A DNA stretch of 32,000 bases from Candidatus Saccharimonadota bacterium (GTDB lineage: Archaea; Nanohalarchaeota; Nanosalinia; Nanosalinales; Nanosalinaceae): contig NZ_CP180230.1 in NCBI RefSeq assembly GCF_047555085.1, positions 450,001 to 482,000 on the forward strand. The letters are read 5' to 3'. Positions 1 to 32,000 of the stretch are shown in pieces. Every line of letters begins with the position of its first letter. Positions within the stretch are counted from its first letter, which is position 1. Both the position numbers and the translations under genes were made by a program. The notes under the pieces were generated by a model. It saw nothing but the letters and a program-made list of their open reading frames with translations. It was not told the origin of the DNA and searched no databases.

Positions 1-1
1 C

Positions 2-193
2 AGAGGCTTCGGGGAAAGACTGGAGCAGAGCAGTAGCTCGCTCCGTCAGGAGATCGAAGGATATGATGAGGTATGGAAAAATTTTGTCGGAAATGAGGAT
101 ACCGTGTCAACTGCTGTAGAGCTACAGAGCCAGGGAGGAGAATGGTATGTGGAAGAAGTCCATGAATTCCCTGAGCTGGATGAAATAGTCTAG
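2..193 (+). CDS. 3' end of a CDS truncated by the window edge; hypothetical acidic protein (...EWYVEEVHEFPELDEIV*).
   Basis: The frame is open from position 2 to TAG at 191-193. Composition is acidic like the neighbouring genes. It converges on the SBDS gene with a 4-nt overlap. No recognisable motif. Confidence 0.4.
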   Translation, partial: RGFGERLEQSSSSLRQEIEGYDEVWKNFVGNEDTVSTAVELQSQGGEWYVEEVHEFPELDEIV

Positions 194-876
194 TACTCCT
201 TGACTTCAGCCTCTCCACCGGTGTACTCCTGTAGATCCTCCATTAACTCTGTAAGGACTCCTGCAGGAAGAGAAACTCTTGCAGTGAAGTAGTCGCTACC
301 CCAGTTTTCCTCTTTTATGTCAGCTACCTGCTGCAGCTTATCATAGGCCTTTCCAGTCTTATCGACAGGAATCCTGATGGCAACATCTTTTTCCTGAAGA
401 GAGATAGGGATAATCGGCTTAAGCAAATCCGTGGCCTCGTCGAAGGCCTCTTCAAGATCTGCATCCCAGTCAATGTGGAATCCGGCCTCCTCCAGAGCGT
501 TTTCAACACGGTTCGGAGGATGAGGATTTCCGGTCTGAGGATTCTGGGCGCGTCTTGCGATCATGTTGACAAGCTGCTTCCATTTATCCTCCCGTATCTC
601 TGCTTTCTGATCCGTTGTCAACTGCATCTCTCCTTTCTCGAAAACTTCTTCAGCGGCATCCAGCACCTGCTTTGTACCGAATTCCTGTTCAAGCTCATCG
701 GCAGAAGCTCTTTCACCTGCTCCTGCATCCTTGAACACTTCCTGTACAAAAAGAAGCCTCTGGATATCATGATCTTTACCTTCCATCTTTGTCTCTTTCG
801 CCAGATCAGGATCTACAAGTATCTCAAAATCTTTCCCATCAGAATAACTTATCTTTATCGCTTCCGAAGTTTCCAT
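190..876 (-). CDS. Ribosome maturation protein SBDS/Sdo1 family.
   Basis: The translation aligns along its whole length with my memory of archaeal SBDS: FEILVDPDLA, VFKDAGAGERAS, QLTTDQKAEIRE, NPQTGNPHPPNRVENALEEAG. The ORF track starts at 915, but the ATG at 876 (METSEAIKISY...) matches family N-termini better. Confidence 0.88.
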   Translation of the reverse strand: METSEAIKISYSDGKDFEILVDPDLAKETKMEGKDHDIQRLLFVQEVFKDAGAGERASADELEQEFGTKQVLDAAEEVFEKGEMQLTTDQKAEIREDKWKQLVNMIARRAQNPQTGNPHPPNRVENALEEAGFHIDWDADLEEAFDEATDLLKPIIPISLQEKDVAIRIPVDKTGKAYDKLQQVADIKEENWGSDYFTARVSLPAGVLTELMEDLQEYTGGEAEVKEY

Positions 877-951
877 ACCAGAAAACTGGAGGCCCAGTCT
901 TAAACAATTTTCCAAAAGATCGCAACGTAGTACTGACTTAATTAATTACAG

Positions 952-1635
952 CTACAGGAGGCCTGAGTCTGGGAGACTGTATCTATCCGTCTCCTCCATC
1001 CACTGAAAATTTTCGGCCTCTCCATCGTAGGCAAGGGCCTCGGCGATATCTACCTGGGCCTCTCCGAAGTCTTCAGGAGTATTCTGCCAGATATGATGTG
1101 TATCCGTGACTTCCACCTGACGGGCATCCAGACGTCCCTCCATGGTGTCGTCGTAGAATACCACGCCATCAGTTTCAGGCTCCAGTAAGCCCTCATAACT
1201 CTGCATACCGGCCGGTATATCAGATCCGACGAATGCTACTACATCGTTTCTATCCATGACTCCTGATTCAAGTGCGTATGATCCTCCGCAACAGTACCCA
1301 AATACTGCTGTTTCTCCATCAAGCATTTCAACGGCTTCCCGTATCTCATCGAAAATTATCTCCGGTGAAGTATTGAATACAGGCCCTTTCTCCCTGTCGA
1401 TAGCCTCATCACCAAGATTCAGTGTTACAAGAGCAGAGTCCGTACCTCTACCGCCAAGAGCCTCGATTATATGAGTTGTTGGATCATGCTCTACAGAAGT
1501 CGGGAAACCTCCGACCACGAGGCCTGTATCAAAGCTTCGGGCAGACTCGTTTTCGGATTCATAGAACAGAGTTTCCGGCTCTATAGTCTTTCCTTTATCG
1601 GCCTCGAAATCGTATCCTGTTTCATCATCCGCCAT
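952..1635 (-). CDS. Hypothetical acidic protein, possibly an alpha/beta-hydrolase of the dienelactone-hydrolase type.
   Basis: The FGYCCGGSYAL segment resembles the nucleophile elbow of dienelactone hydrolases. The ATG at 1635 (MADDETG) is preceded by a G-rich SD-like run. The ORF track's start at 1674 would overlap the upstream gene. Function call is weak. Confidence 0.55.
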   Translation of the reverse strand: MADDETGYDFEADKGKTIEPETLFYESENESARSFDTGLVVGGFPTSVEHDPTTHIIEALGGRGTDSALVTLNLGDEAIDREKGPVFNTSPEIIFDEIREAVEMLDGETAVFGYCCGGSYALESGVMDRNDVVAFVGSDIPAGMQSYEGLLEPETDGVVFYDDTMEGRLDARQVEVTDTHHIWQNTPEDFGEAQVDIAEALAYDGEAENFQWMEETDRYSLPDSGLL

Positions 1636-1670
1636 TCTGTTCCCCCCGTTTATTGGTGGAAATATTATCT

Positions 1671-30795: not shown

Positions 30796-31005
30796 ATGGC
30801 TCAAGCTGCTGGACCTCAAAATAGTTTTGAAAGGATTATAGAAGGGATTTTTGCACTCTTTGTGCTGTTTATTTTTGGTACAGAGGTTTTCCCTGAACTG
30901 TTGCAGACTCTAGATTATCCTCTTTCGCCTTTCGTCATCTATGGCTCTTTGTTTTTGGCAGGTGTTGCTATTCTCTTGAGTATTGTAGGTGAGTTCTCTA
31001 GATGA
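30796..31005 (+). CDS. Small 2-TM membrane protein, translationally coupled to the restriction-modification gene.
   Basis: The ATG lies 3 nt after the restriction-modification gene's stop codon. Hydrophobic helices IFALFVLFIFG and VIYGSLFLAGVAILLSIV. Confidence 0.55.
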   Translation: MAQAAGPQNSFERIIEGIFALFVLFIFGTEVFPELLQTLDYPLSPFVIYGSLFLAGVAILLSIVGEFSR

Positions 31006-31214
31006 TTAGGAACGAGATTTCTACGGGCGCAATTCTGACGATCGTATTTGCAGGTGCGTATATGGCTATTTCTACTATTTGGGGTTCAGAACTTTCCAGT
31101 CTTGGTAAGATGACCTATACTAACACAGTGTTGATTTTCCTTGCTGTGCTTGTATTTGGAGTTGTTAGAGGAGGAAATTATATCGAGAACTATATGACAA
31201 ATAAAAGTGAGTAA
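31002..31214 (+). CDS. Small 2-TM membrane protein, overlapping the previous gene (ATGA).
   Basis: The start and stop codons overlap at 31002-31005. Hydrophobic helices GAILTIVFAGAYMAISTIW and VLIFLAVLVFGVV. Confidence 0.55.
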   Translation: MIRNEISTGAILTIVFAGAYMAISTIWGSELSSLGKMTYTNTVLIFLAVLVFGVVRGGNYIENYMTNKSE

Positions 31215-31295
31215 AATTAATTGAGTTTCTATTAACTTCTTCCAAAAATTTGTAAAGGCTTATTGAGGGCCTCTCAGTAGAATAGAAGACTTTAC

Positions 31296-31760
31296 CTAAA
31301 CTTCAGAAACTACAAGTAGAAGATCCGCCAGTATCAGCAGAAGGCCTATTCCGTATATTTCTGCTGAGCTTTTACTCTGGAATTTCCGGTTGGTGACTTC
31401 TTTGTTGTTTAGGCTGGCGACGAGGATTATTACTAGGCCTGCTAGTGATAGTGTTCCTATTCGGTAGGAGAGCGGTATTGAGATGTTTCTGTGGATTACT
31501 GGTGTTGAGAGGCCTCTAAGTAATATGGCTGCAGATATTATTTCTGTTGCTGATGTCTTGGATTGAAAGTTTCCACGGCTCAGGAATGCGTTGTGTCCTG
31601 TAGAGTAGATGAAGGATGTGGCTAGGCCTAAAATAGATCCTGTGATTATCAGAGCCAGGTTTTGGTCTATCCAGGTGATCATATCTGTAGTTTTTAGAGA
31701 AAATTTTTCTTTTATCGTGGCATAAAGGTTGCAAAGATTGTAAATTTCTGCCCTTTTCAT
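31296..31760 (-). CDS. Integral membrane protein (about 4 TM), unknown function.
   Basis: 154-aa ORF with hydrophobic helices throughout. No motif recognised. Confidence 0.5.
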   Translation of the reverse strand: MKRAEIYNLCNLYATIKEKFSLKTTDMITWIDQNLALIITGSILGLATSFIYSTGHNAFLSRGNFQSKTSATEIISAAILLRGLSTPVIHRNISIPLSYRIGTLSLAGLVIILVASLNNKEVTNRKFQSKSSAEIYGIGLLLILADLLLVVSEV

Positions 31761-31768
31761 TATGGTTT

Positions 31769-32000
31769 GTGAATTATGTAGAGGAGAAGTTTTGGTATCC
31801 GAGTATTGATTATATTGATACTAAGCATTCTGATATTTTGGATGATAATCCGGATAAGTATCCTGGTGAGAAGATTCCTCCAATTAATTTGATTGATGTT
31901 TTACATGAGGCTAGAGTTGAGCCTGGAGTTTATAGAAAGGCTGCTGTTTTGTTTAAGGAGATTAGCAGAAGGCATGTGTATGAGGATGGGAATACTACTA
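31769..32000 (+). CDS. Doc/Fic-family (death-on-curing) toxin-like protein; 5' part only, truncated by the window end.
   Basis: Not in the ORF track. The frame is open from the GTG at 31769 to the window end, with an upstream in-frame TAG at 31688-31690. The translation is MNYVEEKFWYPSIDYIDTKHSDILDDNPDKYPGE...GVYRKAAVLFKEISRRHVYEDGNTT. The WYP..D.I..H start and the H-x-[FY]-x-DGN core match the Doc/Fic motif HxFx(D/E)GN. Confidence 0.62.
   Translation, partial: MNYVEEKFWYPSIDYIDTKHSDILDDNPDKYPGEKIPPINLIDVLHEARVEPGVYRKAAVLFKEISRRHVYEDGNTT

Follow-up and report, generated by a model that had tools for sequence, protein, structure and literature searches.

What keeps a single six-base word at high density through coding and non-coding DNA is the question raised by a 32,000-nucleotide stretch of the genome of Candidatus Nanosalina sp. 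VS9-1 (contig NZ_CP180230.1, positions 450,001 to 482,000), the whole of which is referred to below as the window. The word, AGGCCT, is a true highly iterated palindrome (HIP) of the type known from cyanobacteria, and it has been pushed towards saturation in the VS9-1 genome. The source lineage was recognized from the cobyric acid synthase CobQ (1671-3005) and a phytoene desaturase (12967-14523), each 100% identical to a VS9-1 protein. This organism is a nanohaloarchaeon, a DPANN symbiont of haloarchaea, as had been guessed in the initial annotation, which was made from the sequence alone and spoke of a host-attached archaeon.

Excess of AGGCCT in the window

Pattern counting by software returned 129 copies of AGGCCT in the 32,000 bases, exactly the number first counted by hand, and no hexamer is more frequent in the window. 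The observed/expected ratio (O/E) was 20.5 on base composition, in agreement with the 20-fold excess claimed initially, 17.5 under a Markov model of order 1, 5.9 at order 2 and 2.15 at order 3. Of the 64 palindromic hexamers, AGGCCT alone was extreme, with GTATAC next at 5.4. The guanine-plus-cytosine (GC) content is 45.3% rather than the 44% estimated earlier, and A...T flanks were found on 129 of the 222 GGCC tetramers (58%), a smaller share than the two thirds given before.

A maximal-order Markov check had also been proposed. At order 4 the O/E fell to 1.03, which taken by itself speaks against an excess, whereas 100 dinucleotide-preserving shuffles of the window yielded a mean of 7.37 copies (standard deviation 2.83) and at most 16, compared to the 129 observed. 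The order-4 value tells nothing as a test, since the hexamer itself raises the frequencies of the pentamers AGGCC and GGCCT. It says only that, within the window genome, the left and right flanks of GGCC occur independently of each other in the statistical sense, and it was replaced by a comparison against non-enriched relatives. The copies are distributed as follows.

345..31629 (first copy 345-350, last copy 31624-31629), no strand: dispersed set of 129 AGGCCT copies, mean spacing 244 bp
3875..21753, no strand: eight intergenic copies, at 3875, 3916, 5261, 6683, 9012, 9355, 20548 and 21748
19100..19155, no strand: tightest cluster, three sites within 56 bp (19100, 19115 and 19150)

At least one copy was present in 30 of the 31 genes called, and outside the stretch from 27 to 32 kb density was even, the counts there being under-dispersed (variance/mean 0.55–0.61). 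Even spacing was dropped as a sign of function, since near-saturation of the available positions predicts under-dispersion anyway. The description of the excess as genome-wide rests on the spread through the window, on site counts per 2 kb along each of the other enriched loci described below, and on 4.9 kb of one related locus (L002) that lie beyond the region homologous to the window.

The called genes cover 88% of the window and contain 121 of the sites, in all three codon phases (25 as AGG-CCT, encoding R-P; 37 as xAG-GCC-Txx; 59 as xxA-GGC-CTx). Synonymous shuffles that kept the proteins and the codon usage retained only 17–22 genic sites (z = 23–27), and each phase stood 4–6-fold above its shuffle mean. 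In non-coding DNA, nine sites (the eight intergenic copies and one in a tRNA intron) were found in 3780 bp where 0.51 were expected, an O/E of 17.8 and thus the same fold as for the whole window. The intergenic sites named in the initial annotation (3875, 3916, 9012, 9355 and 21748) all proved to lie outside open reading frames (ORFs), and its core proposal of a process at the level of DNA, as opposed to a codon or dipeptide effect, is borne out by these three results.

The unit of this process is the hexamer, as had been claimed. Outside the six bases the window sites carry at most 0.13 bit of information and their contexts are varied, apart from a weak, mirror-symmetric bias by which position -1 tends to be G and not T, and position +1 tends to be C and not A. 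The 18 GAGGCCTC sites and the 10-bp palindromes TAAGGCCTTA at 3361 and TGAGGCCTCA at 11028 were recovered as reported. A repeat family such as REP (repetitive extragenic palindrome) or MITE (miniature inverted-repeat transposable element) was ruled out, as the flanks of the copies are at background composition. The preferred flank was observed to differ by clade, like a dialect: G at -1 in the VS9-1 clade (37%, GAGGCCTC) and A at -1 in the SG9 group (44%, AAGGCCTT).

The densities of related words were compared with those of non-enriched nanohaloarchaeal genomes of the same GC (45%), as follows.

GGCC with neither flank correct: 0.6/kb in enriched clades, 0.6–0.7/kb in non-enriched genomes
GGCC with one flank correct: 1.4–2.2/kb in enriched clades, 0.75/kb in non-enriched genomes
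Full AGGCCT: 3.1–4.0/kb in enriched clades, 0.25/kb in non-enriched genomes

The rise over baseline is therefore 2–3-fold with one correct flank and 12–16-fold with both, and the full palindrome is favoured more than multiplicatively over half-sites. Among the one-base variants, those at the outer positions were raised over the non-enriched level (GGGCCT/AGGCCC 3.9-fold, TGGCCT 2.1-fold, CGGCCT 1.3-fold), and those at the four inner positions stood at 0.84–1.34 of it. The two transition neighbours AAGCCT/AGGCTT and AGACCT/AGGTCT were at about 0.65–0.7 of the sister-group level in the VS9-1 clade and at 0.94–1.1 of baseline in the second enriched group. Taken together, double-stranded DNA is under a sequence-specific pressure whose target is precisely these six base pairs. 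The pressure prevails over the choice among synonymous codons and, at a slower pace, leads to the fixation of amino-acid changes by which new sites arise.

The strength of this pressure was gauged from slots, defined as positions where the encoded peptide allows AGGCCT synonymously, i.e. R-P, [KEQ]-A-[FLSYCW], and x-G-L if x can be encoded by a triplet with A in third place. The proportions of slots filled were as follows.

VS9-1 clade: R-P 76%, [KEQ]-A-[FLSYCW] 60%, x-G-L 69%
Second enriched group: R-P 73%, [KEQ]-A-[FLSYCW] 46%, x-G-L 66%
Non-enriched nanohaloarchaea: R-P 0–9%, [KEQ]-A-[FLSYCW] 7–9%, x-G-L 6–9%

The proteins have changed as well. Slots numbered 18.3 per 1000 amino acids in enriched lineages versus 9.5–9.9 in non-enriched ones, about twice as many, and the R-P dipeptide had an O/E of 1.8 versus 0.84–1.09, with no rise in the reverse P-R. 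Codon alignments revealed site-creating replacements in CobQ, SBDS and the proteasome alpha subunit (PsmA), some of them convergent between clades. Two genes of the window illustrate the effect.

1671..3005, minus strand: cobyric acid synthase (CobQ) gene, 5 sites
3363..3368, no strand: AGGCCT at the universally conserved Arg-Pro of the proteasome alpha subunit (gene 3054-3758, minus strand)

In CobQ, the replacements of E-A-Q by E-A-S, of E-A-E by E-A-Y and of K-S-S by K-A-S, relative to non-enriched relatives, each create a site, and the change to E-A-S recurs independently in the enriched locus L005. At the PsmA dipeptide, AGG-CCT is used in all 11 loci with an O/E of at least 3.6, and in L026 (3.1), and in none of 21 non-enriched loci, which have AGA-CCT, CGT-CCT, AGA-CCG and others instead.

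Distribution and maintenance among nanohaloarchaea

Relatives were collected by a proteasome-subunit scan of the genome collection, which gave 33 nanohaloarchaeal loci and one outgroup, and by protein look-ups, which gave 8 further loci, one of them (L162) haloarchaeal. Among 42 nanohaloarchaeal loci, 10 were strongly enriched, two were intermediate and the remainder stood at 0–3.1-fold (O/E at order 1 throughout).

Strongly enriched, VS9-1 clade: window 17.5, L002 (NHA29) 18.4, L155 17.3, L156 13.9
Strongly enriched, other lineages: L017 (SG9, complete genome) 15.2, L006 15.1, L005 13.3, L021 12.2, L012 11.6, L010 10.0
Intermediate: L018 (M3_22, CP046106) 5.6, L009 3.6
Not enriched (0–3.1): all others, including the sister group L001, L003 and L004 (Nanosalina J07AB43), and L157-L161

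L157-L161 were placed with the sister group by protein identity alone and do not figure in the tree; L161 is probably a second, separate locus of Nanosalina J07AB43. A neighbour-joining tree of two proteins (100 bootstraps) joined the window and L002 at 100%, the sister group (L001, L003, L004) at 100%, and the two with each other at 100%. The remaining enriched lineages fall, away from this branch, into three pairs or triplets with full support, among which the tree gives no firm order. The trait is thus seen in two or more distinct regions of the nanohaloarchaeal tree and is absent from the immediate sister group, and given these positions it was either gained at least twice or lost many times.

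Density was even along every enriched locus, including the 4.9 kb of L002 mentioned above (3.9 sites/kb). The possibility that the enrichment was confined to the window, which would have counted against the initial proposal, finds no support, as the effect recurs at other loci of related genomes and in separate assemblies produced by different studies. Enrichment is inherited as a trait within certain lineages of nanohaloarchaea and is lacking in their nearest relatives.

The sites are also actively maintained in these lineages. Between the window and its enriched relatives, with nucleotide identities of 71–81%, hexamers in general were kept in 15–29% of cases (about 23% overall) and AGGCCT in 10 of 12; in non-enriched relatives 0 of 16 window sites were kept. 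Lineage-specific gains were seen in CobQ at alignment columns 181, 868 and 1331, and decays in the same alignment were transitions at inner positions (AGGCTT and AGACCT in L156).

Several further observations were made during this survey. In L018 and L009, which are nested among strongly enriched lineages, slot occupancy was 19–39%, and AGGTCT, AGACCT and AAGCCT stood at conserved slots; this pattern resembles decay that set in once the driver had disappeared or become weaker. A search for alternate hyper-iterated palindromes in other nanohaloarchaea detected only modest cases, ACCGGT, CTGCAG and TCCGGA at 3.6–5.9-fold (2–3-fold over synonymous shuffles). The first of these reached 4.6–5.9-fold at order 1, again 2–3-fold over synonymous shuffles, in the AGGCCT-poor L007, L013, L014 and L020, where it may be a weak alternate motif. 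The haloarchaeal L162 (Halorutilales archaeon Cl-col2-1, CP169074, 912928-934424) strongly avoids GGCC (10 copies versus 54–132 expected) and has zero AGGCCT, CGATCG, TCTAGA, GGATCC and ACCGGT, which for GGCC-containing words is the opposite tendency to that of nanohaloarchaea. L031 (JBLGBK010000008.1), titled 'MAG: Colwellia polaris', carries a nanohaloarchaeal proteasome alpha gene (78% identity) and SBDS in the conserved arrangement, and is probably a mislabelled or contaminated bin.

Viral sequences were examined by scanning IMG/VR for three AGGCCT at short gaps, and the matches listed were mostly due to chance or tandem repeats. Two contigs among them, in which the AGGCCT sites are dispersed, are recorded here. 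L036 (IMGVR_UViG_3300029432_000018, 1-3639; GC 36%) has 13 sites in 3.6 kb, 10.4-fold at order 1 and 32-fold on composition; its sites are mostly AAGGCCTT, and AGGCCT ranks among its top hexamers. L121 (IMGVR_UViG_3300031867_007516; GC 52.5%) has 22 sites, 7.6-fold on composition, and encodes a primase-helicase, an integrase, ParA and Rep; GAGGCC and CGGCCT outscore AGGCCT there, so that the pattern may differ. No similarity was found between the proteins of L036 and L121 and those of the nanohaloarchaeal loci.

Candidate mechanisms

The reading favoured here, with a rough probability of 0.45, is that of a horizontally acquired methyltransferase of StuI-type specificity coupled to a bias in repair or recombination. 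The reader of the site would be a Type II-like enzyme with the specificity of StuI, most plausibly a cytosine methyltransferase, orphan or linked to restriction-modification (RM), obtained by horizontal transfer. The methylated hexamer would influence which strand or allele is retained when mismatches are repaired or DNA recombines, and site-creating mutations would be kept while site-destroying ones would be removed, in a ratchet or molecular drive of the kind suggested for the HIPs of cyanobacteria. A Type II-like reader is favoured because the footprint is exactly 6 bp, perfectly palindromic and sharply bounded, and because AGGCCT is a known specificity. An RM or methyltransferase origin is favoured because a patchy, clade-wise distribution is typical of RM and orphan methyltransferase genes (PMC10609329); M3_22 (L018), the one nanohaloarchaeon of the present set that figures in a REBASE-based survey, is listed there with a single Type II methyltransferase (PMC10609329).

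Alcanivorax borkumensis SK2 possesses an active RM system of the same six-base specificity, in which cytosine is methylated on both strands, and StuI-type methylation, where characterized, was detected by single-molecule real-time (SMRT) sequencing and lies on the second cytosine (PMC12128166). A Moorella enzyme predicted to recognize AGGCCT in fact modifies GGGCC(m4C)C, i.e. a related enzyme makes N4-methylcytosine (m4C). These observations are a lead and not proof.

With regard to the dynamics, the data fit a bias of the fixation type, in which gains are favoured, losses are disfavoured and tolerance is graded at positions 1 and 6, because a purely mutational boost to 17-fold would empty the neighbour classes, which stay filled. 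Such a bias may result from methyl-directed strand choice in repair, from a drive in uptake or recombination, or from selection for the site. In cyanobacteria, Elhai described the pattern of HIP1 deviants that is matched here and proposed a methyltransferase-directed mismatch-repair ratchet (PMC4390886). Protection of a methylated C alone was rejected as an explanation: four other positions still mutate, so that it should at most halve the loss rate, setting a ceiling of about 2-fold against the 17-fold observed.

Two defence genes of the window are of relevance in this context.

4344..5120, minus strand: Mrr-like (Type IV-like) nuclease gene, GC 36.6%, GC at third codon positions 29.7%, 1 site
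27082..30792, plus strand: Type IIG restriction-methyltransferase gene of the adenine class, 1236 amino acids, 5 sites (1.35/kb)

The Mrr-like gene has 1.3 sites/kb versus 4.25/kb in all coding DNA, and the two genes, at about one third of the normal density, are probably later arrivals. In the Type IIG gene, 5 of 9 synonymous slots are filled, and slots number 7.3 per 1000 amino acids, the naive level, versus 21 in the other genes. Because this site-poor gene has filled its synonymous slots and gained no extra ones, a fast synonymous filling followed by a slow amino-acid phase would appear to unfold over the residence time of DNA in the genome. These enzymes were the only ones of RM type detected when the window proteins were searched with Pfam, NCBIfam and PADLOC, and both were ruled out as drivers, being site-poor.

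Several points weigh against the favoured methyltransferase. No cognate (C5 or N4 cytosine) enzyme was detected by Pfam, NCBIfam and PADLOC searches of the window proteins or by motif scans of the sampled nanohaloarchaeal loci, and the sole methyltransferase of the window is the adenine enzyme just described, seemingly a late arrival. The motif scans, which covered about 720–1000 ORFs from all nanohaloarchaeal loci, gave no C5 or N4/N6 match, a weak negative since the crude patterns also missed the Type IIG enzyme of the window. A. borkumensis methylates AGGCCT and yet has just 1674 sites (PMC12128166), by our own estimate about 2-fold over composition (about 3.1 Mb, 55% GC), and the methylated motif of the nanohaloarchaeon SVXNc, GDGCHC, is rare (140 sites); a methyltransferase alone is therefore not sufficient. 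The inner neighbours are at 0.65–1.0 of baseline, so the bias must act like a fixation bias, which selection would also give. Finally, a mismatch-repair system was not documented for nanohaloarchaea in this analysis.

An unlikely alternative is that AGGCCT is a tag of self or kin DNA, read by uptake or recombination machinery that prefers DNA with the site, perhaps in methylated form, the site then spreading by molecular drive in the way modelled for uptake sequences and put forward recently for HIP1 in transformation. The fixation-type signature without drained neighbours would be expected of such a tag, as would the maintenance of sites between diverged relatives, the lower density in the two defence genes, seemingly late arrivals, and the flank dialects of the VS9-1 (G at -1) and SG9 (A at -1) clades; furthermore, preprint abstracts tie HIP1 to methylation-dependent transformation. 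Counts more even than Poisson outside the RM island would also suit it, but near-saturation of slots explains this on its own. A sharp 6-bp perfect palindrome is unlike the asymmetric 9–12-mer uptake sequences with their extended consensus, domain searches detected no competence or uptake genes among the window proteins, and DNA uptake by nanohaloarchaea is not documented in the nanohaloarchaeal literature examined. A more specific version, rather improbable in our view, is that of a transferable 'self' mark: AGGCCT, probably methylated, would separate own or kin DNA from host DNA, either in uptake and recombination or by shielding the symbiont's own DNA while a nuclease digests that of the host, its determinant would move horizontally, the mark would be spread by drive, and clades would differ in their flank dialects.

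Somewhat less probable than a tag is a selected chromosomal function, in which the site is bound by an abundant dimeric nucleoid, segregation or replication protein, or serves as a dense methyl mark, and one copy per about 250 bp is kept by selection. Palindromic symmetry suits a dimeric binder, the conservation of sites within the clade greatly exceeds the background, copies are evenly spaced except in the RM island, and neighbours at baseline are as expected under selection-mutation balance. An essential role is nevertheless hard to square with absence from the nearest sisters, whose genomes are otherwise similar, and presence in at least two parts of the tree; a symbiont with a small genome would need to keep up thousands of sites, each weakly selected, and binding sites are rarely so short and so sharply bounded.

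Classical very-short-patch repair, in which a 5-methylcytosine (m5C) methyltransferase at AGGCCT acts with a Vsr-like endonuclease that turns T:G into C:G, is quite improbable, and we infer that the mechanism is a different one. The reduction of the two transition neighbours in the VS9-1 clade would agree with it, as would the fact that inner-position deviants do not pile up although C-to-T decay is seen. The second enriched group shows no such depletion, that of the VS9-1 clade is of the size expected merely from slot conversion, and a 17-fold enrichment should need a boost that empties the neighbour classes. Known effects of this repair are modest, the StuI-type methylation described so far is detected by SMRT and a related enzyme makes m4C, and neither vsr nor a C5 methyltransferase gene was found in the window by domain searches. 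The analogy to Vsr and Dcm drawn in the initial annotation is accordingly poorly supported, with transition neighbours reduced in one clade and unchanged in the other.

That no special process is at work, the excess being due to codon usage, dipeptides or composition, to an unrecognized repeat family or to faulty assembly, is almost certainly wrong. The order-4 O/E of 1.03 and the location of some slots on conserved dipeptides could be cited for it. Shuffles preserving dinucleotides, codon usage and proteins all fall short of the count, non-coding DNA is equally enriched, no flanking consensus exists, independent assemblies from different studies agree, and the effect is missing from relatives that share the GC content and the proteins.

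Among known systems, HIPs are the closest of the analogies offered initially. HIP1 (GCGATCGC) and the alternate HIPs of cyanobacteria (GGCGCC, GCCGGC, GCsGC) are, like AGGCCT, short perfect palindromes at least 15-fold over-represented (Elhai 2015, PMC4390886; Xu et al. 2018, PMC5861425). They are likewise dispersed in coding and non-coding DNA without a longer repeat, present by lineage, conserved above background and of the kind of sequence read by Type II methyltransferases, and the one-base deviants of HIP1 are also concentrated at the first and last position (PMC4390886). AGGCCT differs in being archaeal (DPANN), a 6-mer rather than an 8-mer, and present once per 250 bp versus about once per kb for HIP1, and in persisting within clades where the alternate HIPs are sporadic (PMC4390886). 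Elhai reported an association of HIPs with a cognate methyltransferase, for which the counterpart here is a candidate enzyme whose gene was not found in the window or the sampled loci; the imprint on proteins, with slots doubled, was measured here for AGGCCT.

The DNA uptake sequences of Neisseria and the uptake signal sequences of Pasteurellaceae resemble AGGCCT in genome-wide excess, lower density in new DNA, protein imprint, dialects and fixation-bias kinetics. They differ in being asymmetric, 9–12 nt long, with an extended consensus and a known competence receptor, whereas AGGCCT is a bare 6-bp palindrome with no known uptake system. The Dcm/Vsr system of E. coli (CCWGG up, CTAG and CTWGG down) is similar as a methyltransferase-linked repair bias that raises a short palindromic target. 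Its effect is less than 2-fold with strong depletion of T-containing neighbours, compared to 17-fold with weak or no depletion here. The StuI-type RM systems, such as that of A. borkumensis SK2 (PMC12128166), share the specificity, but no hyper-accumulation of the site is reported from genomes that carry them. As a rule, restriction leads genomes to lose such sites, and the target of an active Type II system would be expected to be avoided; the 17–20-fold excess is the opposite. A search of the literature on Nanohaloarchaeota (methylome, RM-survey and comparative genomics studies) and on other archaea found no report of AGGCCT over-representation. The HIP phenomenon itself is known, and what is new here is the domain, the sequence, the density, the measured protein imprint and, above all, close relatives without the trait.

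Other features of the window and meaning of the trait

Two further features bear on claims made in the initial annotation.

3982..4138, plus strand: tRNA-Ile(TAT) with an 81-nt intron (about 4021-4101) after the anticodon, detected by ARAGORN with the -i option
6704..8557, plus strand: beta-propeller protein gene, 8 sites in all three codon phases

The tRNA was missed by default ARAGORN and by Rfam gathering thresholds and required the intron-aware mode, which confirmed an AGGCCT (4048-4053) inside the intron. The intron is unusually long, and the exon halves are 95–96% identical to those of Nanosalina J07AB43 (L004). In the beta-propeller gene, the phases assigned earlier were found again (6796 in phase 2, 7122 in phase 1, 7313 in phase 0).

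A carotenoid cluster of the bacterioruberin type (11369-16789) comprises Caroten_synth, a UbiA prenyltransferase, phytoene desaturase, phytoene synthase and LPG_synthase_TM, and its synteny is kept in related nanohaloarchaea (L159-L162 are also concerned). The desaturase is 62–65% identical to haloarchaeal proteins and 77% to one of a Halorutilales archaeon, values that suggest gene exchange with the host lineage. Probable surface proteins are encoded at 6704-8557, 16799-20496 and 22585-24123. They include the beta-propeller protein, four consecutive proteins with Laminin_G_3 or ConA-like lectin domains, and a further protein with a fibrinogen-C-like segment, and this run provides candidates for host attachment. 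A non-palindromic hexamer, TACAGG/CCTGTA, is 4–6-fold over-represented (61 copies in the window) in both orientations to genes and in several codon phases; it occurs in AGGCCT-rich as well as AGGCCT-poor nanohaloarchaea (L001, L018, L029, L160).

With about 70% of the permissive codon contexts converted and several di- and tripeptides doubled, these lineages provide a gauge of how far a pressure at the level of DNA can go, and the imprint is relevant to codon-usage, phylogenetic and binning work on DPANN genomes. The density of AGGCCT is also a quick marker of these lineages in hypersaline metagenomes. In cyanobacteria, nearly all lineages of which possess HIP1, the origin of highly iterated palindromes has been an open question for some 30 years. 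The nanohaloarchaea offer a natural experiment, with archaeal genomes of about 1 Mb and sisters with and without the trait, including complete genomes (VS9-1, SG9 and M3_22 versus J07AB43), and a presence/absence comparison of genomes together with one methylome could name the responsible gene. If a methylated self mark were indeed at work, it would serve DNA-dependent symbionts in telling their own or kin DNA from that of the host.

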